DNA of 64,000 bases from Escherichia phage HX01. The stretch is from sequence record NC_018855.1; one strand, written 5' to 3'. The number at the start of each line of letters is the position of its first letter. Position 1 is the first letter of the stretch. The notes below the pieces were generated by a model. The model worked only from the letters and a program-made list of their open reading frames with translations. It was not told the DNA's origin and searched no databases. This document shows positions 10,871 through 37,600 of the stretch, one piece after another. Position numbers and translations under genes: made by a program.

Positions 10871-11818
10871 ATGTACAATATTAAATGCTTGTCCCAAGAA
10901 GAACAGTTAGAAGCTTATGGCCTGGTTGAATCAGGCAAATGGACTCGTAAAGAAATTGCCGATTACTTCGACATTTCAACAGATACTCTTCGTAAGATTG
11001 TTAAGAATTTTAAAGCAGAAGGCGTTGTCCCTGAAGCAAACGATGCCTCTTATGTAATCGAAGAAGTTCCAGAAAATGATGAACCTATTATCGGCGGACA
11101 TCGTCCTGAAATCGTATGGAACGCGTCATCTAAATTTATTTCAATTATTGAAGGACGCGTAGCATACAATGCGACTCCATCAAGTCATGCAAATTTTGAA
11201 GAAATTAAAGCTAATCTGGTCGCAGGAAACCTTAATAAAGCTGTCGAACTTATTAACATCAAGAAAGCTATTAGTAAGTTTGTTGACGGTAATGTTGTTA
11301 TTGAAGGTGGTAGTTTATTTTATCAAGGTATAGAGATTCGTTCTGGTCTGGTTAATCGTATTATTGATTCTATGGAAAAAGGCGAAGACTTTAAATTCTA
11401 TCTACCGTTCCTTGAAAACCTGTTAGAAAACCCAAGCGAAAAAGCTGTACAACGTTTATTCGACTTCTTGGTTGCAAATGATATTGAAATCACTGAAGAT
11501 GGGCATTTCTACGCGTGGAAAGTAGTTCGTAAAGATTATTTAGATTGCTATAGCGGTACATTTGATAACTCACCAGGTAAAGTTGTTTCAATGCCTCGTA
11601 CTCGTGTTAACGATGATGATACACAAACCTGCTCCCGTGGTCTACATGTTTGCGCTAAATCGTATATTCGTTACTTTGGTTCTAGCTCAGATAAAGTTGT
11701 TAAGGTTAAAGTTCATCCACGTGATGTTGTGTCCATCCCAGTTGACTATGGCGATGCTAAGATGCGTACTTGTCGTTATGAAGTAATTTCAGACGTTACT
11801 GAATTATTTGCAGAATAA
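10871..11818 (+). CDS. rIIB: rIIB protein
   Basis: 315 aa (T4 312 aa), directly downstream of rIIA, followed by strong terminator. Confidence 0.85.
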   Translation: MYNIKCLSQEEQLEAYGLVESGKWTRKEIADYFDISTDTLRKIVKNFKAEGVVPEANDASYVIEEVPENDEPIIGGHRPEIVWNASSKFISIIEGRVAYNATPSSHANFEEIKANLVAGNLNKAVELINIKKAISKFVDGNVVIEGGSLFYQGIEIRSGLVNRIIDSMEKGEDFKFYLPFLENLLENPSEKAVQRLFDFLVANDIEITEDGHFYAWKVVRKDYLDCYSGTFDNSPGKVVSMPRTRVNDDDTQTCSRGLHVCAKSYIRYFGSSSDKVVKVKVHPRDVVSIPVDYGDAKMRTCRYEVISDVTELFAE

Positions 11819-17848: not shown

Positions 17849-18050
17849 TTCTAAAGCAGATTATTTTAATTCTGTTAATGATAAGAATAAAGCTTTAATT
17901 CGCCACTTTATTACTGAGATGGGATACACTGACTCTAAAGATTTGAAAGAGCACATTATCGAATGTTCTGTGGCTAAAAAGTTTTCTTTTACCGATAAAT
18001 GTTTAAACGAGGTTATAAAGCATTATGAACAATCTTGTAGCAAAACATAA
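17832..18050 (+). CDS. Hypothetical protein
   Basis: 72 aa with RBS AAGGA. Confidence 0.45.
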   Translation: MMRIIDSKADYFNSVNDKNKALIRHFITEMGYTDSKDLKEHIIECSVAKKFSFTDKCLNEVIKHYEQSCSKT

Positions 18051-18133
18051 TTTCAATAAGGCTTCTGTTCATAAGGACAAGAAGAAATCAGAACTTCAAT
18101 CTAAACGTAAACAAAAACATAAGGGTAAAGACT

Positions 18134-18433
18134 ATGCTTATTAAAATCAAAGAAAATCCTGCAACTGAACTTGTTATTCGATGCGAAGAACTTGCAGAGC
18201 TTTATCAGGTTAACCGAGAAGTATATCGTAGTGTTGTTGCAGATATGGCAGACGAAGTATGTTCTCGTATTCCTTTTAGTGTTGATTTCAATCACATGAA
18301 GCCTGGTGAAATCACTATCGTCTTTGGTTCTGACTATACTGAAGAACGGGCTCTTAATGCCCTAGAATATGAAATGTCGTTCTTCGACATACAGGACTAT
18401 ATTGATAGTTATAAGGAACGATATGAGTCATAA
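18134..18433 (+). CDS. Hypothetical acidic protein
   Basis: 99 aa ORF between motA and asiA. Confidence 0.5.
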   Translation: MLIKIKENPATELVIRCEELAELYQVNREVYRSVVADMADEVCSRIPFSVDFNHMKPGEITIVFGSDYTEERALNALEYEMSFFDIQDYIDSYKERYES

Positions 18434-18584
18434 TCTTCAGAACGTAGTAGAGGCCGAACGTGAGCGTGAGGCTTTAGTCTATAATGAACTATTAGTTCCG
18501 TTCTTGGCCTTACACTCGTACGAACAGGAAGACTACACCAATTACGTTAAAAGCGTAGAAAAAGCCATTTACAATCAACACTGA
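18422..18584 (+). CDS. Hypothetical small acidic protein
   Basis: ORF track 18369-18584; start moved to ATG 18422 overlapping upstream stop. Confidence 0.4.
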
Positions 18585-18630
18585 TAATGGTACTATATCC
18601 ATATCAACTAAGTGGAATGAATAAAACGTT

Positions 18631-18903
18631 ATGAATAAAGACATTGAAATCGTACGTGAAATTATTACTATTGCTTCTATTTTGATTAAATTCTCTAGGG
18701 AAGATATTGTTGAAGACCGAGCAAGTTTCATCGGATTCTTGAATGAGATTGGAATTAAAAAAGATGGTCGGCAGCTAAATCAGAATTCGTTCAGAAAACT
18801 AATTACAAATTTAACTGCCGAAGAAAAGAAAACACTGATTAGTGAATTCAACGAAGGTTTTGAAAATATTTATCGTCATTTAGCGATGTATTCTAACAAC
18901 TAA
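18631..18903 (+). CDS. asiA: Anti-sigma-70 factor AsiA
   Basis: 90 aa; MNKDIEIVREIITIASILIKFSREDIVE...NQNSFRK matches T4 AsiA. Confidence 0.92.
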   Translation: MNKDIEIVREIITIASILIKFSREDIVEDRASFIGFLNEIGIKKDGRQLNQNSFRKLITNLTAEEKKTLISEFNEGFENIYRHLAMYSNN

Positions 18904-19563
18904 TTATTTGGCCCTTCCTAGTATTCGGACCGCTTGGTTGCATATAGCCGCTAAGCGATCCTCCTCAAGTATATTATTCCCCTTATACCAATACATCGTC
19001 ACAGTTCCAGCATAGATGTTATCCAAATTAAAGTATGGACAACTATACATATAAGAAAGTTCGGCAGTCTTAGATTTTGTAGGCAAAAATGCAAATTCTG
19101 ATTTAGATGAGAAATGACGGCCACTTAAATGAATTATATATTCATTGGCCGTTTTATCCACCGGGAATCCACCAAGGGACTTTTCAGAAATTGTGCTAGG
19201 TAGTTTGCCTTCATAAGCTATAAGGTCGACAAAATAATTTAAGTTTTTAGGTCTGAAAGAATACACAGCACTAAAATCTGCACCAGATGAGATATGAACT
19301 ATTTGCAGTTGTTCTAGAGCCGCAGATTCAAAACGTAAAGCTCGTTCTTTTTGGATTATTTCAGTATAAGTATCATACTTAGCTCTTACGTAATAATCCA
19401 GCAAAATACTTCCTTTGTACCATATTAGTGCCATTAGGAACAAAAGAATAATTACCGCTACTCGTGACATTAAAACCTTTCCAGTAGCGTTATCTTTGAA
19501 AATACGATCTAGCAACCCAAATAGAATATCACTAGGTGAAAATGACACTTTTGGTGTTGCCAT
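18904..19563 (-). CDS. t: Holin T
   Basis: 219 aa; MATPKVSFSPSDILFGLLDRIFKDNATGKVL... matches T4 holin (218 aa). Confidence 0.92.
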   Translation of the reverse strand: MATPKVSFSPSDILFGLLDRIFKDNATGKVLMSRVAVIILLFLMALIWYKGSILLDYYVRAKYDTYTEIIQKERALRFESAALEQLQIVHISSGADFSAVYSFRPKNLNYFVDLIAYEGKLPSTISEKSLGGFPVDKTANEYIIHLSGRHFSSKSEFAFLPTKSKTAELSYMYSCPYFNLDNIYAGTVTMYWYKGNNILEEDRLAAICNQAVRILGRAK

Positions 19564-19572
19564 AATACCTCC

Positions 19573-20124
19573 TTACTTAAAGATATTTATAATCGCTTTG
19601 AAAATAGATTTGTTTTCAAGGTCAGGGAATTTAGGGAATTCGCCGCCAAGATGTTCATGTTTTTCTAAAAGGGCAAAGAATTTTTTGAGCTCTTTAAATT
19701 TTCGTTTTTCTTCTCTATTAGCAACCTCTGCGTCAATAAGAGAACTTAAAACACCGAATAATTTATAGAGTTCATGAATTTTCTTGTCACGTTGAACTAC
19801 GCGTTTATATGCTTCATCTTCCTTCCACCCGTCACCGGACCAAATGTCAAATTCACCAGGTTCTTCTGTAGTAACATTTTGAAGAGTACCTGGAGTGTCA
19901 ATAACAATTTTTTGCTTATCATAAGTCCATACTGTTTTTCCACGATGGTCTTCGACATATACCCATTCTTGTTCGCGTTCATCAAATACAACAGCATAGC
20001 CTTCTTTAGGGTCTAAAGGTTTTTTTGGTGTCGAATGAGCCGGAAATCCTACGCCTTTTAATGGTTTATAATTTTCTTCTTTGTAAAATTCTTTAGTGTC
20101 AAAATAATAGTGATAGAGTTTCAT
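19573..20124 (-). CDS. 38: gp38, tail fibre assembly chaperone (T4-type, 183 aa)
   Basis: 183 aa; MKLYHYYFDTKEFYKEENYKP... as in T4 gp38. Confidence 0.9.
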   Translation of the reverse strand: MKLYHYYFDTKEFYKEENYKPLKGVGFPAHSTPKKPLDPKEGYAVVFDEREQEWVYVEDHRGKTVWTYDKQKIVIDTPGTLQNVTTEEPGEFDIWSGDGWKEDEAYKRVVQRDKKIHELYKLFGVLSSLIDAEVANREEKRKFKELKKFFALLEKHEHLGGEFPKFPDLENKSIFKAIINIFK

Positions 20125-20128
20125 ATTA

Positions 20129-20148
20129 TAAAAAGGGACCGAAGTCCC
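20129..20148 (-). terminator. Intrinsic terminator downstream of gene 37 (- strand)
   Basis: - strand reads GGGACTTCGGTCCC then TTTTTATAAT. Confidence 0.65.
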
Positions 20149-20154
20149 TTCTCC

Positions 20155-23100
20155 TTATGCTAAACGAACGATATAGTTAAAAGCAACGTTTTTAACTGTG
20201 TTTTCTGTATTTCCTGTGGCATTTACAGTTATTGTATGTCCATGGGAACCAATTGCAACAGTATGAGAATGAGCACCAATACCCACAGTATGCGTATGAG
20301 CACCAATACCCACAGTATGAGCATGGTTACCCGTAGCGCTAGTAGTTCCTGACCAACTATGAGTGTGGGCACCATCTGAAGAAGTTTTGGCTATATTCGA
20401 CCCTGCAGTAGCACCATTCACGGTTCCAGTGAATTTAGCGTTGGCGTTTGCACCTACACTATTATATCCGTCATAGAATATGTTATTGGGTATGCCGGCT
20501 TGTATCTGAGGGCCTGAACGCGCGTGTTGGTGCGCACCGGCGGAACTAGTATTACCGCTCACTGTATGGTTATGGTTACCAGTGGTATTACTGGTCTTAG
20601 TACCATAATCAAAGCTTGAAGTCGTTTTGCTACCGTAATCAAAACTAGAAGTGGTCTTAGTACCCAAATCCGTGTTTGATGCACTTGCACTATGGCTATG
20701 TGACTTAACACCGTCTGCTTCTGTACTTAATACAGCACGCCCAGATGGTTTACCCTTGATAGTTTGACCACGCATATCAGGCAGAGAGCCGGAAGGATAC
20801 ACAGCAGCTAACTTAGGATACAAGCCAGCATCAAATGTTTGACCTTCCATTATGGCGTAACCTTCAGGAGGTGTATCAGTAGGCCAAGGAATCGGAGCAC
20901 CAATTGGATAACTTGAGACAATATCCGTCTTAAGGTTATTTATTGTGGTATTCAAGTTAGCAAAATTGCCAGAACCACCGGTGATATTACCATCAGTACC
21001 AATACGAACATTACCAGCGCCTAATTTACCAGGAGAGTAAAAATCACCGTTTTTATTAAATTCCCAACCTAAATCCTTTATAATTGCGCCAGTAGAACCG
21101 CCATCGCCACCTTCGTGATAATGAACTCTAAAGTTACCACCATTAATTAAAGTACCAATAGAATAGCAACTATTATTTTGAACGTATCTTTGTTTCACAA
21201 TAGGAACATAAGTGCTTGTATCTGTTCTATCAATATTCATATAGAAAGGAGCACGAACGTTTTCATTATTTTGTGAAGCAAAAGAACCGGCTCCAGCTGG
21301 GCGAACAGCATCAGTACATTCTGCATCAATGTACGCCGACTGACCTATCTGCATTCTGAAATTAGGAGAAATGCGACTATTACTAGTAACAACAACAAGT
21401 TTGTTATCGTTGTCCACAGTAATCATATTACCACCAGCACCATCATCGCCTAACGTAACAGAATGACGCATTTGCACCATACCATTATTAAGGCTAATAC
21501 TAAGCGGGCGGAGATTACTTATTCCACCACTTTCACCTGCATCTTTAAGTGTAGGTATAATATACAAAGACGCTTCAGAACGACGGAAAATAGCTCCATA
21601 TTCAGCATTGTAAATACGGAAAGCATCTGCGGTATTACCGATTTTAACTTGACCTGTAATAGAACCACCGCCGGATAAAACAAGCCCGTTATCCATAGTA
21701 ACTTGTCCGGATAATGTACTTAATCCATTAACTCTAAGACTTCCATCGGTGATAATGCTCCCTCTTGCATTCAGTTGTCCATTAATTTGTGTTACAACAG
21801 GTCCCACAGTTTCTGAACCGGTTGGAGCCACACGCTGTGAATAAAAATAATATCCTTGTCCGTCAGCTACTTCAAAAACTGTTTCACGATTACGATCGCC
21901 GGATGCGTTAAATGAATTACCCCATGCTTTAACAGTTACATAACTCTTATTCTGACCTGCTCGAGTACCGCCTTCCCACATGATTTGCTTAGTGCCGTCA
22001 ATACCTGAAGCTGCTTTAAAAACTAGAGAAGCATTAGTTCCATCACCATTAAAATATAATCCATTATTAAGCTTTAACGTTTGAACAGAAGCGACGGTAC
22101 CATCAGCACGCAAACTTAATGTATTTGAACTAGTTTTAATATCTAAAATTCCTGGTTCAACAATAAGTCCTTCGGCCATGCCAACAGCCATACGACCTGT
22201 ACCACGGAAATAGTGATACATCTTGGCATTGCTGCTATAACCTATATGAGTCTGACCATCGCCGTTATTATTACCATCAATATCGGTGCGTGCGGTAAAC
22301 ATTGCTTGGTTGTTATTTGGAAAATCCCAGGTAGAACCGGAATCTCGACTATAACCAACCATCAATTTTTTAGTACTGTTAATACCGTTATTAAGAATAG
22401 TGCCGGCAGAAATACCATTCGCAACTAAATCGATAACCCCGTCACGAACCCATTTAATACCAGTATCATTGTCACCAATTGCAATACCTTTACCAAACGA
22501 AACCAATGGATAACGTCCTTGGTCACCAACATCAGCAAGACCTATACCTATCGAATTAGCAACAGACATACGCCCATCTGTGGTATAAGACCATTGATAA
22601 ACTTCAGCATTACGTCCCGTCCAATACGAAATATTCTGTGGTTTACCTGAACGAGCATCAGCAACTTCATGGAAAATAGCAGAAGAAACATGTCCGCGGA
22701 ATTTACGAAGGTAGTTTATACCATTAGTATCCAAATCCGTTTCGGTTGGAGTATACTGCCAAGTCGGTAATGAAACTAAATCATATGCAGTATCAATATT
22801 AGTGTCCCAAGATTTAGTGCTCACATTGATATTTTTGGTAATAACTTTAGGACCAATTAAAGAACCAGCTTTAGTTTCAATATTACTTTGAGTAACTAAA
22901 TATCCATTAGATACTAATAAACTTCCGGAATCAACTTGAAAATTACCGTTTCGATTAAAAGTCCAGTATTTTGAAGTCCCGGTTTCATCAATATAATGGA
23001 ATTTAAAACTACCTTCGTTTACTAATGTACCAGCAGAAAAAGTTCCATCTTTATAGCGTTGTTTAATCAGCGGATGGTATTCTGAAACAGAAGTAGTTGA

Positions 23101-23448
23101 ACTTAAATCTGTAAAGATAGGGGCTTTATTCAAATGTTGGTTGGCCCAACGAGCACCATTTCCAGCGGTTTTAGGTAAAAATTCAATATACTTACCGGCG
23201 TAAACGAACATATTACCATTGAGGTTAAATGTGCCGTTTTGTAAATAATCACCATTTTGAGTTACATTACCGTTAATATCCCCGCCCTTAGCAAAGCCTA
23301 GGCTAATAATATTACCGAGGTCATCTTTAGTAAAAAGAGTTCGATCTTTTAAGTTTATCGCTAATTCGCCTTCGGCTAATTGTGCCGCAGTAGGATTAAC
23401 TCCTGCTACTTTGCTTCTTTTAAATTGTATCTGTTTTAATGTAGCCAT
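20155..23448 (-). CDS. 37: gp37, long tail fibre distal subunit with C-terminal His-box receptor-binding tip
   Basis: 1097 aa; N-terminus [16 protein letters not shown]... as T4 gp37; C-terminal HxH repeats. Confidence 0.93.
20244..20324 (-). repeat. Tandem 27-nt repeats encoding His-box (HxH) units in gp37 C-terminal tip
   Basis: GAGCACCAATACCCACAGTATG(C/A)G(T/C)AT repeated twice plus a degenerate third copy; encodes GAHTHTVGI-type units. Confidence 0.75.
20593..20665 (-). repeat. Tandem about 30-nt repeats in gene 37 encoding KTTSSFDYG(S/T)
   Basis: Direct nucleotide repeat; protein shows [21 protein letters not shown]. Confidence 0.7.
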
Positions 23449-23456
23449 AAGTCCTC

Positions 23457-24119
23457 TTAATAATAGCCGAAATCTTGAACAGAATCTTTAATTACAATCT
23501 GGTCGAAACGAGGAACATGATTAGCCTCGGATGCCGGATTCTGTGAGAAAAAGTTTGGTGCTGTTAAAGTACCAGTCATGGTGTCGCCTTTACGCAATAC
23601 ACGGGAATTTGCGTTATCCGTAACAATATTTATTCGTCCATCAACATAGTCCTTTCTAGTAAGGTCATTCGCTGCTACAGGAGCAGTAGCGTTAGAACGA
23701 ACAGGACCGGTTGCATAAAAACCGCCCTTAGTGCTGACATCACCGGTACGAGCGTTAATAACAACAGTTCGTTCTGCTGAACCTTGTGATGATTTAAAAC
23801 CAATACCATTCCATGAAACGATGTCAATATTTGCCATAGCAAAAGTAGCTGCATCACCGTTACCTGGATAAACACCGCACTGTTGACTACTACCTATAGT
23901 AGGAACATGTACGCCTCCATTAAATCGAACGGTCGCGCCGTAAGTACCACCATTAGCTTTAGAAACGAAATCGTTATCAGCCGCTTGTGGTTTATTATAT
24001 TCTGAATAGAGTTTAAACGTTTTATACAGGACGTCATCACCTGCTGGCATTAAAGGGAAATTACCTTGATGCCATATGACAGCACCGCCAGTTGTACTAC
24101 CAGCTTTTAAATCGGCCAT
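23457..24119 (-). CDS. 36: gp36, long tail fibre hinge/distal connector
   Basis: 220 aa (T4 221 aa); position between 35 and 37. Confidence 0.9.
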
Positions 24120-24143
24120 AGTTGTCTCCTTATATGTATACCA

Positions 24144-24151
24144 TATTTATA
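24144..24151 (-). promoter_or_regulatory. Late promoter (TATAAATA) for gene 36-37 transcript
   Basis: TATAAATA on - strand about 25 nt upstream of gene 36 ATG. Confidence 0.6.
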
Positions 24152-24152
24152 C

Positions 24153-24176
24153 AAAAATGGGAGACCGAAGTCTCCC
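24153..24176 (-). terminator. Intrinsic terminator downstream of gene 35 (- strand)
   Basis: - strand reads GGGAGACTTCGGTCTCCC then ATTTTTG. Confidence 0.65.
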
Positions 24177-24181
24177 TAAAT

Positions 24182-25309
24182 TTATTCCGATGCTTCTTTA
24201 AATTCTTGTCCAAATACCTTACCAGTATCAGTTGAAGATTGAGTAGGTAATGTCATTATGTCTGGGGCACTTAAAGATTCTGAAACATAATTTACACGAA
24301 TACCATTTACACCAAACTCAGCAGGTTTTGAAACGCTTCCATTACATGATACTTCAGTGAATATAATGTTTCTTAATCCACCTTGCCCGACTGGAGCTGT
24401 ACGATAACAATAAATCGTGAACCCGTCAGCACCAGCAGGAATTTCTATGTAGTCTTCATATATCTTCCATTCACCTGCAGCCCCATCAAAGTTTATATCC
24501 TTAAATGAAATAGGTGAAGTAGAAGGAGATTTAAAGAAACGAATAGAAAGTCGTGTCGTCCCTTGTGCTAACAAATCAGCATCGGCCATTAGTTGGAATT
24601 TCATATAAAGGAAATCTCCAGGCTTCAATTTATACCCAGCGAGAGGTGTAATAAGGGATGTTGTAGGCATCCTTTTAATTTCATTATTAGTACCTCCAAC
24701 GGCAGATAAAAATGTGTCTGTCGATTCATACGTACGACTAGGGAAGCCGGTAGCACCAATATCGTCGATCGTGTCATACACAACATCAAGTGGTGTACTA
24801 TAGTCGGTTGAAGTTTTCTTATTACTATACTTAATATGTTCTAGTGCTATAGCATTCTTACCAGAAATATAAAATGCCGAATAAGAAATGTCCACTATAT
24901 TTAAAACTTGTTGAGCTAATGGAATAGCAGAACTTCCGGCTTTATTAAACCATGTAAGAACTTCAGGCGGAAAGTTTGTTTTAGCGTTAGTAACAAGAGC
25001 AAATATAAAATTTGAAGCATATGTGTCCATGAAAGTAACAAATGCACTTGACGTTGTGTCGTTTTCAGTAGAGAAATTATATGACTTAGATTCAACTACT
25101 GCACCTGTTGTAGGATTTATTACACGAACGTTTAATCCAACGGAAAAAACCTGGGACCCAAGTGGATTATCTTGGAACTTAATATAAGCAGGAGATGTTG
25201 ATAGCGGGCAAGAGCCCGCTATGCTTAATTTAAATCGTACTGAATTGCTTTCCGATAAAAATGGCGTTTGGACGTATCCTTGTCCGAACTTAGCCATAAA
25301 TTTTTCCAT
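24182..25309 (-). CDS. 35: gp35, long tail fibre hinge protein
   Basis: 375 aa (T4 372 aa); synteny. Confidence 0.9.
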   Translation of the reverse strand: MEKFMAKFGQGYVQTPFLSESNSVRFKLSIAGSCPLSTSPAYIKFQDNPLGSQVFSVGLNVRVINPTTGAVVESKSYNFSTENDTTSSAFVTFMDTYASNFIFALVTNAKTNFPPEVLTWFNKAGSSAIPLAQQVLNIVDISYSAFYISGKNAIALEHIKYSNKKTSTDYSTPLDVVYDTIDDIGATGFPSRTYESTDTFLSAVGGTNNEIKRMPTTSLITPLAGYKLKPGDFLYMKFQLMADADLLAQGTTRLSIRFFKSPSTSPISFKDINFDGAAGEWKIYEDYIEIPAGADGFTIYCYRTAPVGQGGLRNIIFTEVSCNGSVSKPAEFGVNGIRVNYVSESLSAPDIMTLPTQSSTDTGKVFGQEFKEASE

Positions 25310-25317
25310 AATACCTC

Positions 25318-28300
25318 TTATTCAATCCACTCAAATTTAACAGTTTTATTCACAGGGTCTGGAATAATGCGAACATTACCAATCCTTAAGAAATCCCTTA
25401 TTGTCAAGTTTCCGATTGTTGCATTATCAGAAGGTAAAGCGCCAATATCAGAAGGTTGAGGAGGGTTTCCGCCATCAAATACCTGAACAAAACTCGACCA
25501 AGAATTTTTAGTTTTCTGCCATGTACGTGTCCAACGGGTTGTACGTGCTTCTGGAGTTGTTGGATAAGTAATCCAATCTTGGTAAAGTGAATCAAGTGTA
25601 TTACCAAACTGAGTCAATGTACCAGGAGATTTAACTTCTTCGCCACGTTCTAAGTATGGAAGCCCAGTCACTTCATTAGTTTTTTCAACCATTTTAAAAT
25701 AACCCGGGAATTGGTTATAAGTAGCTGAATCATTAATGTCAATTGACCAGAATCCTACAGTATCAGATGTCGGTGCACGGGTGTATAAATCAGCGGTTTT
25801 AGTGCCCTGAGAACGAATTCTCGAGTTAACAGTTAAACCACCTGAATTTATAGTAGCACCTTTGGCAATGATTAAGCTTTCACCAATCGTTACTTGGCCG
25901 GATGCATTATTAATAGCTAAAGGACGTAATCCATTAAATCCGCCAGTCTGATCACCTGATGCAGTAAGCATAAAATAGGTATTAGCAGCATCATTACGAA
26001 TAAAGAATCCGTAATTACCACTAATTGCTCTGAATGCGTTTGCACTATAGGTTATAAATTCACCCTGTGCTGTCACCGAACGTCCAAATGTTGCCGCACC
26101 ATTAGCATTCAATGTTCCGGATGCATTAACATTAATCGGCCGAACTGTACCGTTGATGCTGAAAGTAATATTACCAAGGTTATCCCGTTGTGAATAAAAG
26201 TGGTTAGATGTTTCATCACCAACTTCAAATATCGTAGCACGAGATGTATCAGAACCGCCGGCGAATTGGTTACCCCATACACGGATATTCATCGCCTGAG
26301 CAGGGTTGTTTCCAGTTTGTGGACCTTTTTCAAATATTAAGCGAGTTGAAGCACCTGTATTAGAAATAGTTAATGTACTATTAGCAGATACCGAACCACC
26401 AAACGTAGCCGTACTAGATGATACAAGAGGGGCACTCAGATTCGTTTGTTGGGTTAAGGTTAGTGAACCATTAACCGTCTGTGCAATGTCCCTACGAATG
26501 AACTGAGATGAATCTAGGCCATCTAATAAATTTGCGTCAGCAGCTTTTGCTTTTAATGGCAAGTAATTTGCCAATACACGGTTTAATTCATACGGTGATA
26601 CTGCATAGCTATTTTTCTCGTATAGCTCTAAGTTTTGTGTAGAACCGACTGTATCATTACCAACGAATGTAATAGAACCGGATGAAGTTTTAACGAATCC
26701 GCGAATTGCTGTAGTAGCAGCCCATGTTGGTTCACTCTGCACAATCCATTTTAAATTCTTAGGAGATACAGCAGTGTTCGCTGACGTTCCAGTCACAGTT
26801 TCAGACTGGGTTGCAACCTTGATTACACCTTCAGACGTTTCAGTGGACTTAGTCCCTAAAAGCTTTTTAGGAGTAATAAGAACATCATCTAAAGTTCCTG
26901 CATTAGATTCTGCCTGGGTCGCTACGCGAAGTGTACCACGTTGTGTTTCATTTGCTTTAGAAATATCAAGAGTATAATGGTTCCACAAGGTTCCTTCTTC
27001 AATAAGTCCGGAATCAGAATTAACACTGGTACGGTCAGAAGAATCAAAATGAGTTTTAATTTTCAGTGGAGTCGAGATACGAGTATCATCAGTTCCAGTA
27101 TCAAATTCAACTTGCGTAGCAATTTCGGCTATGCCGGATAATCCTTCCGTCGCTCTCCTATCATTTAACGTCTTAGGCGTTACTGCACGTGTATAATCAG
27201 TCCCAGCATTAGTTTCTGCTTGCGTAGCAATTTCAATTAAACCAATACGTCCATCAGTAGAAGTTTTCTTATGTAGTGTTTCAGGAGTTACTACAGCATG
27301 AGAGTATCCAGACTGAGATTGTCCAGCAATTACTTCACTATCAATAGCTAAAATTACTGCACCTTGTTGGGCGTAAGTTGCTTTATATTGGTCAAGGGCT
27401 TTAGGAGAAATAGTTAAATTATTTACGGTTTTATTATAAACATTAGTGCCTGCAGCCCCACGAGTTTCGGCAGGAGTAGCAGAAGTAGTTGATACATATT
27501 TAACTATACCCGATAGTGTTTCGGAACCCTGACGTGCCTGTAATTTCTTAGGCGTAATAATCGTTGTGTCATCAAGACCAGCATCGGTTTCAGTCTGAGT
27601 AGCAATTTCAGCAAGACCGCGACGAGTTTCAGTTGCTGTACGCTCATTTAGTTTTTTAGGCGTAACAATAGTATCGTCCACAAATGATGCTGTGGAATTC
27701 TGGTTAACTTGTGCTGTTGTAGCAATTTTAGCGATACCACGTCGAGCTTCAGTTGCTGTACGATTTGCCAACGTTTCAGGAGTAATAGCAACTTCTTTAG
27801 CCGGAGTATTCTCTAAATCAACATTTGCTTGCGCTTGAGTAGCAAGAGCAATAACACCTAAACGAGCTCGTGTAGCATCAGTTCCAGCATCAACACGTTC
27901 TACCGTAGGGACATTCTGTTGCACAACCCAATAATGGGTGTCAGAATCGGTATCTTCAATATATGCTAATTCTAATACAGGAACATATGAATTAGTACCA
28001 TTGAATTCCAATTCAGTAACAGAAACCCATTGAGCATCAGGTGGATATTCAGAACGTTTAGGGAACTGAAGCAATGCAACAGAAGAAGCAATTGTATCAC
28101 CAGTAGCTGCTTTAATTTTTACTGTTTGGCCTTTACGCATGTAGTTCATTGAAATTTTAACAGTGTCACCACTCAAAATTCCAGTAGGCAGCGTAAGATT
28201 AATAGTTCCGGTTGTAGCGTTATTTGTGCCAAAAATAAGAACTTCTTCATTTGGACGAATATTTGAATCAGCACGGATAATACGAAGACGCGATTTCTGG

Positions 28301-35344: not shown

Positions 35345-37600
35345 ATGCAAGTAACTAAGAGCAGTGGTGTATCCCAAAATTTTGATGCACAGAAAATTAT
35401 TCAAGTATTAACTTGGCAATGTGAAGGAACACAAATCGACCCATATGAATTGTACGAAGAAATTAAGACCCATCTTGTCGATGGGATGAGCACCAAAGAT
35501 ATTCAGAAGATTTGTATTAAAGTTGCAGCTAACTCGATTTCTGTCGAAGAACCCGATTATCAATATGTTGCCGCTAAAGGATTAATGTTTGCACTTCGTA
35601 AAGATGTATATGGACAGTTTGAACCTCCTGCTTTTATCGACCATATTTCTTACTGTGTTAATGAAGGCAAATACGATCCCGAGTTGTTGTCTAGATATTC
35701 TGCAGAAGAAATCATTTATCTTGATTCTCAGATTAAACACGAGCGAGATTTCGACCTGACTTATGCTGGTGCTATGCAGCTTAAAGAAAAATACCTGGTT
35801 AAAGATAAAACAACTGGTAAGATTTATGAAACTCCCCAGTTTGCTATCATGGCTATTGGTATGGCCTTACATCAAGACGAAACTCATGACCGTTTGAAAC
35901 ATATTATTCGTTTTTATGATGCCGTTTCTACTCATCAAGTTTCATTGCCTACTCCAATTATGGCAGGTGCTCGTACTCCAACTCGCCAGTTCTCTAGTTG
36001 TGTAGTTATTGAAGCCGGTGATTCGTTAAAATCTATTAACAAAACTTCAGCATCAATTATTGAATATATTTCTAAACGAGCTGGTATAGGTATCAACGTT
36101 GGTATGCTTCGTGCAGAAGGTTCTAAGATCGGTATGGGTGAAGTTCGACATACGGGTGTTATTCCATTCTGGAAACATTTCCAAACTGCAGTAAAATCTT
36201 GTTCTCAAGGTGGTATTCGTGGTGGTGCTGCTACAGCGTATTATCCGATGTGGCACTTAGAAGTAGAGAACCTATTAGTTCTGAAAAATAACAAAGGCGT
36301 GGATGAAAACCGTATTCGACATATGGACTACGGAATTCAAATTAATGACCTTATGATGGAACGCCTTGGTAAAAATGATTATATTACTTTATTTAGCCCT
36401 CACGAAATGTCAGGCGAACTATACTACTCGTTCTTTGAAGATCAAGATAAATTCCGTGAGCTTTATGAGAAAGCTGAAAAAGACCCGACAATCAGAAAGA
36501 AAAGAATTAAAGCACTAGAACTCTTTGAATTGTTCATGACTGAACGTTCTGGTACTGCTCGAATTTATCCACAGTTTGTTGATAACACGAATAACTACAC
36601 TCCATTTATTCGTGAAAAAGCTCCAATTCGTCAGAGTAACTTATGTTGTGAAATCGCTATTCCAACTAATGATGTGAATGGCCCTGATGCTGAAATTGGT
36701 TTATGCACATTATCTGCTTTTGTATTAGATAAATTTGATTGGCAAGACCAGGATAAAATTAATGAACTTGCTGAAGTGCAAGTACGTGCACTTGATAACC
36801 TGTTAGACTATCAAGATTATCCGGTTCCAGAAGCTTTAAAAGCTAAAAAGCGTCGTAATCTTGGTGTTGGTGTTACGAACTATGCCGCGTGGTTAGCTTC
36901 TAACTTTGCTTCATATGAAGACGCTAACGATTTGACTCATGAATTGTTTGAGAGATTGCAATATGGCCTTATCAAAGCTTCAATCAAACTCGCCAAAGAA
37001 AAAGGATGTTGCGAGTATTATTCAGACACTAAATGGTCTAGAGGCGAATTACCTATCGACTGGTACAATAAAAAGATTGACCAAATCGCAGCCCCGAACT
37101 ACGTCTGTGACTGGGAAGAACTTCGAGCTGAACTCAAAGAACATGGAATTCGTAACTCAACGTTGTCTGCACTCATGCCTTGTGAGTCAAGCAGTCAAGT
37201 ATCAAACTCTACAAACGGGATTGAGCCCCCGCGCGGTCCAGTAAGTATTAAAGAATCTAAAGAAGGCAACTTCCGTCAGGTTGTTCCTAATATAGAACAT
37301 AACATGAGTCTTTACGACTACGCGTGGAAACTTGCTAAGAAAGGTAATAAACCTTATTTGACCCAAGTTGCTATCATGTTGAAATGGGTGTGCCAATCTG
37401 CTTCTGCTAATACTTACTATGACCCTGCAGTATTTGAGAAAGGTAAAGTGCCAATGTCAGTAATGCTTGACGATCTGCTTTACTTCTGGTACTTTGGCGG
37501 AAAAAATCTCTACTATCATAACACTCGTGATGGGTCAGGTACAGATGACTATGAATTAGAAACACCTAAAGCTGAAGATTGTTCTGCTTGTAAGCTTTAA
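35345..37600 (+). CDS. nrdA: Ribonucleotide reductase large subunit
   Basis: 751 aa; near-colinear with T4 NrdA, e.g. C-terminal ...DGSGTDDYELETPKAEDCSACKL. Confidence 0.95.
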   Translation: MQVTKSSGVSQNFDAQKIIQVLTWQCEGTQIDPYELYEEIKTHLVDGMSTKDIQKICIKVAANSISVEEPDYQYVAAKGLMFALRKDVYGQFEPPAFIDHISYCVNEGKYDPELLSRYSAEEIIYLDSQIKHERDFDLTYAGAMQLKEKYLVKDKTTGKIYETPQFAIMAIGMALHQDETHDRLKHIIRFYDAVSTHQVSLPTPIMAGARTPTRQFSSCVVIEAGDSLKSINKTSASIIEYISKRAGIGINVGMLRAEGSKIGMGEVRHTGVIPFWKHFQTAVKSCSQGGIRGGAATAYYPMWHLEVENLLVLKNNKGVDENRIRHMDYGIQINDLMMERLGKNDYITLFSPHEMSGELYYSFFEDQDKFRELYEKAEKDPTIRKKRIKALELFELFMTERSGTARIYPQFVDNTNNYTPFIREKAPIRQSNLCCEIAIPTNDVNGPDAEIGLCTLSAFVLDKFDWQDQDKINELAEVQVRALDNLLDYQDYPVPEALKAKKRRNLGVGVTNYAAWLASNFASYEDANDLTHELFERLQYGLIKASIKLAKEKGCCEYYSDTKWSRGELPIDWYNKKIDQIAAPNYVCDWEELRAELKEHGIRNSTLSALMPCESSSQVSNSTNGIEPPRGPVSIKESKEGNFRQVVPNIEHNMSLYDYAWKLAKKGNKPYLTQVAIMLKWVCQSASANTYYDPAVFEKGKVPMSVMLDDLLYFWYFGGKNLYYHNTRDGSGTDDYELETPKAEDCSACKL

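Follow-up and report, generated by a model that had tools for sequence, protein, structure and literature searches.

The distal tip of the long tail fibre of phage T4 is the closest described counterpart of the locus considered here. The structure of this tip (2XGF, the gp37 fragment 785-1026; Bartual et al. 2010; D10/D11 of Islam et al. 2019) is laid out as a collar, a descending stem, a head and an ascending stem, with boundaries placed at residues 811-881 and 1010-1026 for the collar, 882-931 and 960-1009 for the stem and 932-959 for the tip subdomain (Islam 2019). The T4 needle carries seven iron atoms, and the pair H929/H931 forms one iron site that is essential (Islam 2019). More recently, cryo-EM of the long and short tail fibre tips of the felixounavirus Bas63 (2025) has revealed a T4-like collar, needle, head and di-histidine repeats, and the paper restates that the needle has six strands, because the chain turns back on itself at the head, and that Fe is coordinated by the di-histidine motifs; its authors found 6 versus 7 motifs and suggested that the number scales with needle length. 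The protein itself, its HxH boxes, their iron-binding role and the variation of box number with needle length are already known. The same C-terminal region of gp37 is also one in which repeat-mediated rearrangement is described as altering adhesin properties: duplications within T4 gene 37 are reported to bring Yersinia into the host range (Tetart 1996), and recombination reportedly takes place at His boxes and other conserved motifs of tail-fibre genes (Tetart et al. 1998).

The window analysed here is a 64,000-nt stretch of Escherichia phage HX01 (NC_018855.1). Within it, gene 37, for the distal subunit of the long tail fibre, occupies 20155-23448 on the minus strand as an open reading frame translated into 1097 residues, with Pfam Collar and Gp34_trimer domains and with the adhesin tip in the same chain. 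Its upstream partner, gene 36, lies at 23457-24119 (minus strand; Pfam Phage_T4_gp36, E=3.5e-33), and downstream of gene 37 come gene 38 at 19573-20124 (minus strand, 183 residues; Pfam Caudo_TAP) and then holin T. Gene 38 encodes a tail fibre assembly chaperone of the T4 or Tfa type and not an adhesin of the T2 gp38 type, and its orthologues in phage DCP548 and others carry the annotation "tail fiber assembly protein". The nearest genome over positions 18000-26000 is that of Escherichia phage PNJ-6, at 96.6% identity, and gp37 of the mosigvirus DCP548 (PQ671645) is 100% identical over the last 201 residues. Taken together, the context of gp36, gp38 and holin T and the matches to PNJ-6 and DCP548 identify a T-even gene 37 of the T4 type, with its tip in gp37. 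Some 110 other T-even isolates share this tip type with DCP548, and the remainder of gene 37 is mosaic among them. The 64-kb window holds no tRNA genes.

Near the 3' end of gene 37 lies the strongest tandem repeat of the whole window, for which Tandem Repeats Finder (TRF) reports a period of 27, 2.5 copies, 90% matches and a score of 115 at 20258-20325, all other repeats scoring 55 or less. A direct-repeat search recovers four in-register copies at 27-nt spacing across 20235-20344. In the protein these correspond to four 9-residue units, each opening with HxH (20218-20325, minus strand, residues 1042-1077): u1, HAHTVGIGA (20325-20299); u2, HTHTVGIGA (20298-20272); u3, HSHTVAIGS (20271-20245); and u4, HGHTITVNA (20244-20218). 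The first two units are identical at 25 of 27 nt, including an exact run of 24 nt at an offset of 27 that is the longest among the phages compared, and identity to u1 falls to 21/27 in u3 and 15/27 in u4. A preliminary description of this DNA had flagged 20244-20324, which corresponds to residues 1042-1068 and units u1-u3, as a run of HxH motifs generated by tandem 27-nt repeats at the C-terminus of gp37, and that run is indeed present there, on the minus strand. All of the motifs it quoted exist, but its listing omitted the first box of the tip, SHSHS at residues 917-919. In total the tip contains eight HxH boxes, with their first histidines at residues 917, 959, 973, 1028, 1042, 1051, 1060 and 1069.

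A phmmer search of the PDB confirms that the protein is a T4-type gp37 with its His boxes in the needle domain, as had been proposed: residues 24-301 of the query align with residues 2-242 of chain 2xgf_A at E=9e-89. The alignment is nearly free of gaps in the collar and the C-terminus, and the conserved 18-residue C-terminus, like the downstream gp38 chaperone gene, is common to the window and T4. The collar, from which the needle hairpin originates, covers residues 850-897 (20758-20901, minus strand; Pfam PF07484, 42 bits against a cut-off of 24, E=9.3e-11) and directly precedes the stem. On the descending strand, box 1 (SHSHS, H917/H919; 20692-20700, minus strand) is proximal to the collar and aligns with T4 H883/H885. 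It is followed by an array of three 10-residue units without histidine boxes, repeated at a spacing of 30 nt (20581-20670, minus strand, residues 927-956), where T4 has two such units, and then by box 2 (NHNHT, H959/H961; 20566-20574, minus strand), and box 3 (AHQHA, H973/H975; 20524-20532, minus strand), the final descending box before the head and the equivalent of T4 H929/H931. The largest gap between HxH boxes, residues 976-1027 (20368-20523, minus strand), is the equivalent of the receptor-contacting tip subdomain. This head is the variable part of the tip: it aligns poorly to T4, to which it is non-homologous, it is longer, at 55 residues from box to box against 37 in T4, and the homologues collected here comprise 73 head families. 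Box 4 (AHTHS, H1028/H1030; 20359-20367, minus strand) is the first of the ascending strand and lies 14 residues before box 5, with which the 27-nt array begins.

The hairpin arrangement of T4 is thereby reproduced, with descending boxes, a variable head and ascending boxes spaced by 14 and 9 residues. Spacings between successive boxes are [42,14,55,14,9,9,9] in the window and [32,14,37,14,9,9] in T4, so that there are 8 boxes in the former and 7 in the latter, and the only stem indels relative to T4 are 10 additional residues in the descending strand and 9 in the ascending strand, the latter being one VGIGAHxHT unit. Counting by these spacings from H929, the T4 boxes stand at 883, 915, 929, 966, 980, 989 and 998; all seven fall within the stem segments and none within the tip subdomain at 932-959. 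The 27-nt array aligns with T4 980-1000 plus one inserted unit. By the T4 boundaries, then, the array would form the end of the returning stem strand, beside the collar and outside the receptor-contacting head. [quoted passage not shown] An AlphaFold2 model of the tip, calculated for the monomer only from a 36-sequence alignment, was poor (pLDDT 50.4, pTM 0.20), as is expected for an intertwined, chaperone-dependent trimer.

Very probably, what the 27-nt repeat encodes is the stretch of the ascending needle beta-strand nearest to the collar, within a stem of matched modules whose number is fixed by the match between the two strands. If the chain follows the same path as in T4, it would exit the collar, descend the needle, form the receptor-binding head and return upward, and three chains would together build a six-stranded needle. 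At each HxH box, again by analogy with T4, the three chains would contribute six histidines coordinating one iron octahedrally on the fibre axis, and the eight boxes of the window gp37 predict eight iron sites, against seven in T4. The array would then set the length and rigidity of the needle in quantised steps and would make no contact with the receptor.

Support for the match between strands comes from the spacings of HxH boxes in about 520 homologues, although the sets from which these were drawn overlap and the sequences are phylogenetically non-independent. The first set comprised 371 needle proteins, namely the hits of two word-indexed searches and of one exhaustive representative search together with the loci fetched first and that of the window; the second comprised 147 metagenome and genome loci, derived from DNA and parsed separately. 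With k as the number of 9-residue steps and m as the number of 14-residue steps, the boxes are spaced as [10k+12, 14×m, head, 14×m, 9×k], k ranging from 1 to 6 and m from 0 to 2. In this formula each k module couples a descending unit of 10 residues without a histidine box to an ascending HxHTVxIGx unit of 9, and each m module has an HxH unit of 14 residues on both strands. The window has k=3 and m=1, T4 k=2 and m=1. Descending spacers in the first set were 21-22 residues at k=1 (3 proteins), 32 at k=2 (199), 41-42 at k=3 (159), 52 at k=4 (6), 62 at k=5 (1) and 73 at k=6 (1), and m was equal on the descending and ascending strands in every intact case. The second set gave the same series, with 22 at k=1 (12 loci), 31-32 at k=2 (23), 41-42 at k=3 (91), 52 at k=4 (17) and 62 at k=5 (1). 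The descending spacer is built of 10-residue (F)DYGTKxxSS units, which in the window form the 30-nt repeat, and in all intact sequences but one an extra ascending 9-residue unit is accompanied by an extra descending 10-residue unit some 400 nt upstream. From this coupling of lengths, we suggest that the 10- and 9-residue units would face each other in the needle. The stem is nested in topology, as collar [k [m [head] m] k] collar, and has 3+k+2m boxes, with a range observed of 4-10.

Several sequences that at first appeared to depart from the formula proved not to be true exceptions. Three loci (L141, L161 and L183) were explained by a 6-nt deletion, in the copy of Candidatus Erwinia dacicola, by 12-residue m-units present on both strands, in a Rahnella protein, and by an H-to-Y substitution. 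Phage N2 is a frameshifted pseudogene, and four proteins (P0125, with 3 descending and 7 ascending boxes, P0136, P0075 and P0171) were misparsed, owing either to an additional, partial needle segment or to mutation of the GTK motif. Eight homologous head families sit on stems that differ in k, and in these too the spacer matches k, except in a single metagenomic contig, L001, discussed below. It is worth considering, however, that cassettes inherited as wholes, and not selection acting on every single change, could be behind part of the coupling.

The same architecture extends beyond T4. The C-terminus of the lambda side tail fibre Stf (orf-314) and gp37 of the T-even phage TuIa (X55190; Montag et al. 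1990) share with the window an identical k=3 and m=1, the spacings [42,14,head,14,9,9,9] and the same 8-box layout. Their four ascending units also agree in kind and position with those of the window, on heads that differ from it in sequence. Lambda Stf differs further in having another N-terminal shaft, a Tfa chaperone and more diverged units (u1/u2 identity 19/27). Relative to the window, T4 has one fewer 9-residue ascending unit, one fewer 10-residue descending unit and a shorter, unrelated head. Bas63, introduced above, is represented by distant sequences, and the paper describing it does not contain a strand-matching rule.

If the stem is indeed a set of matched modules, the number of units would evolve only by a joint change of both strands or by recombination that swaps whole nested cassettes, and a one-sided slip would put the strands out of register, with counter-selection as the expected result. 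The second of these routes bears on the most durable of the alternative explanations, which we treat as complementary to the matched stem rather than opposed to it, after the model of Tetart and Krisch: that His-box DNA serves mainly as short patches of homology for recombination in tail-fibre genes, through which head and stem cassettes are exchanged, and that changes in copy number are an occasional by-product of misaligned crossovers. As a main role for this DNA we consider the proposal plausible, if somewhat short of probable. The core GGTATTGGTGCTCAT is conserved in 7/7 T-even tips aligned, and lambda differs from it at one base, but such conservation is also explained by a strong amino-acid constraint on the iron site. 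In keeping with the proposal, stems that differ in k carry homologous heads, and collars and C-termini that are nearly identical carry different ones.

Evidence for such exchange also comes from the one intact sequence in which the strands do not match. Contig L001 (IMG/VR 3300030021_000020) has three descending units and only two 9-residue steps, and its array is shorter than in its nearest relatives by exactly one 27-nt unit. In block-wise alignment it is 97-100% identical to phage TH54 over most of the descending strand, the head and the first ascending box, and from the array through gene 38 it is identical to the window at 39-40/40 nt per block. The switch from TH54-like to window-like sequence falls inside the 27-nt array, and one unit has been lost. 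This single junction comes from a metagenome assembly: L001 may have arisen in nature by an unequal crossover at the His boxes, or it may be a chimera assembled from two phages present together. Its gp37 frame, gp38 and holin are all intact, and this apparent integrity in spite of the mismatch suggests that a mismatch of one unit may be tolerated. In addition to its structural role, His-box DNA may be a site at which recombination joins sequences, in line with the proposal of Tetart and Krisch.

Far less favoured is the explanation offered by the preliminary description, in which the array is a hypermutable in-frame repeat whose slippage or unequal recombination tunes host range or stability within a lineage; we regard this as very improbable. 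The exact 24-nt run shared by u1 and u2 would be a plausible substrate for slippage, copy number does differ between T4 (k=2) and the window (k=3), contig L001 is short by exactly one unit, and the reported duplications in T4 gene 37 provide a precedent for a wider host range through rearrangement of this gene. Against these points must be set the constancy of the array in close relatives. Among the roughly 100 listed that share the tip type, no variation in copy number was seen: the tip is at least 80% identical to that of the window in 111 records, all of those listed spanning the same 603 nt, and in 58 of 60 listed isolates the alignment across the array is 27 nt longer than in contig L001. 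For TH54, whose alignment breaks off within the array, the sequence itself has three 9-residue steps. A span 117 nt longer in O157 typing phage 13 was considered as a possible duplication and rejected on account of runs of N/X in the record. Within the Tevenvirinae, k=2 was found in T4, G2285 and N2, and k=3 in the window, DCP548, JQD51, UGJNEcP1, TuIa, TH54, mogra and BCH953P4, in a census that samples the phage nucleotide collection without exhausting it; the protein homologue search gave few full-length T-even gp37 sequences, even with a 538-residue query.

The units are, moreover, old. Position by position they are orthologous in T-even phages and in lambda Stf, and u1/u2 identity within genomes (21-25/27) does not exceed identity between genomes, whether at the same or at another position, which argues for an ancient duplication; this comparison gave no signal of concerted evolution or of a recent u1-u2 duplication. 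Neither of two marks of a hypermutable repeat was found, since the sole variant seen is a mosaic metagenomic contig and the units within a genome are not highly homogeneous. Considering also that the array lies off the head, aligning instead to the collar-proximal stem, and that its copy number is tied, in every intact sequence except one, to a second repeat at a distance of some 400 nt, there is little support for a host-range switch driven by slippage. A unit that is matched on the opposite strand and constant in close relatives is better seen as an ordinary structural feature. The preliminary description was nevertheless right that the array is expandable, in so far as the number of 9-residue units ranges from 1 to 6 across the wider family; what does not hold is free expansion, each unit being matched by a descending 10-residue unit. 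It had also named as grounds for abandoning its proposal that the boxes correspond one-to-one with those of T4 and are invariant across relatives: the correspondence is not one-to-one, but the number is invariant in the listed close relatives. No duplication of the head segment of the Tetart type is present in the window gp37. Such duplications reportedly involve the region about the head, delimited by His boxes, and not the collar-proximal 9-residue array.

That the repeat is an artefact of chance or composition, or a feature of the plus strand, is hardly credible, as no support for it was found, the TRF score of 115 was reached in 0/100 first-order Markov simulations of the window (best simulated score 70), gene 37 on the minus strand is the only open reading frame of at least 60 residues covering the array, and the encoded 9-residue units are conserved across hundreds of homologues.

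For a needle of matched modules, the practical value of the rule lies in what can be read directly from a translated gene. From sequence alone it predicts how many iron sites there are and how long the stem is, and it also locates the receptor-binding head between the last descending and the first ascending HxH box, and points to indels that are likely to be tolerated, for use in the engineering and annotation of fibres. A broader claim is that the needle is a quantised molecular ruler made of two kinds of strand-matched module, under a rule not explicitly described before; we put this forward as a possibility, and a rather doubtful one. The formula was not found in the accessible literature, among which the key structural paper is not included, and its novelty is uncertain. 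Were the ruler real, the number of iron sites would equal 3+k+2m (4-10) and stem length would be fixed accordingly, needle length might be tuned to the depth of the surface layer of the host, the engineering of chimeric fibres would need matched k and m, and contig L001 would be a natural example of how unequal crossover within the array can undo that match. For the window itself the consequences are small: it encodes a standard T4-type gp37 stem, iron-binding by homology with T4, and identical tips are already in GenBank, where the record of phage mogra annotates a repeat_region equivalent to window positions 20242-20310, inside the array.

Among intact sequences, the strand-matching rule of the needle, by which the HxH spacings follow the order 10k+12, 14×m, head, 14×m, 9×k, is broken by a single homologue, the metagenomic contig L001 (IMGVR_UViG_3300030021_000020). 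Its T-even gp37 is a mosaic, with a 5' part resembling that of phage TH54 and a 3' part resembling that of the window, and the breakpoint falls inside the 27-nt His-box array itself (locus ~2230-2310), where one unit is missing. Either unequal crossing-over truly took place here or the contig is a chimera produced during assembly. In a 938-aa prophage tail fibre protein of Shigella sonnei (P0125), a partial needle start (aa 410-456, with HxH spacings of 32 and 14) is followed 324 aa further on by a complete needle with k=2; the arrangement looks like a recombination scar or the fusion of two fibre genes.

Other homologues carry altered boxes or units. In Rahnella perminowiae (L161), the HxH units next to the head measure 12 aa rather than 14, on the descending and ascending strands alike, a further sign of joint length change in both strands. 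Candidatus Erwinia dacicola, the olive-fly symbiont, holds at least five copies of needle-tip genes with k=4 (L131, L133, L141, L156 and L176), and in one of these (L141) the first ascending HxH box has been destroyed by a 6-nt deletion in an HTHT-coding stretch, which is a small in-frame slip; the host element is probably a decaying prophage. In Escherichia albertii NBRC 107761 (L183), Tyr replaces the first His of one ascending box (AYSHS) with the spacing kept, and one iron site of the resulting needle is predicted to be absent or changed.

The gene 37 3' end of Escherichia phage N2 (L028, ON645936) has a frameshift in the head region, reflecting either a sequencing error or a defective long tail fibre tip in the isolate, and the gene carries only a misc_feature annotation. 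In E. coli O157 typing phage 13 (L030, KP869111), where gene 37 lacks annotation in the record, a duplication in the tip was considered and rejected: the apparent 117-nt length difference is an assembly gap, because two stretches of the tip sequence consist of undetermined bases (X in translation). In the genome contig search, matches of the lambda Stf type, all alike (735 nt, 63% identity), came from low-coverage contigs in assemblies of unrelated bacteria (L115-L125 and L165; Pseudomonas, Shewanella, Neobacillus, Paenibacillus, Chromatium, Kitasatospora, Leeuwenhoekiella and Desulfosporosinus). Some of these contigs are ~48.4-48.5 kb long with a coverage of ~1, and the whole set of matches looks like contamination with phage lambda DNA, rather than real prophages.

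Repetition at this site has been annotated before, as the GenBank record of phage mogra (L032, MN850579) bears a repeat_region at locus 388-456, equivalent to window ~20242-20310, inside the array. For moha, teqhad, teqdroes and teqskov, from the same study, a repeat_region is listed among the features underlying the matches to this portion of gene 37. Elsewhere in the window, TRF detected two weak tandem repeats, at 11774-11814 and 35781-35818, with a period of 20-21 or 19, ~2 copies and scores of 52-55, which fall within the range obtained from simulated sequences (maximum 70).
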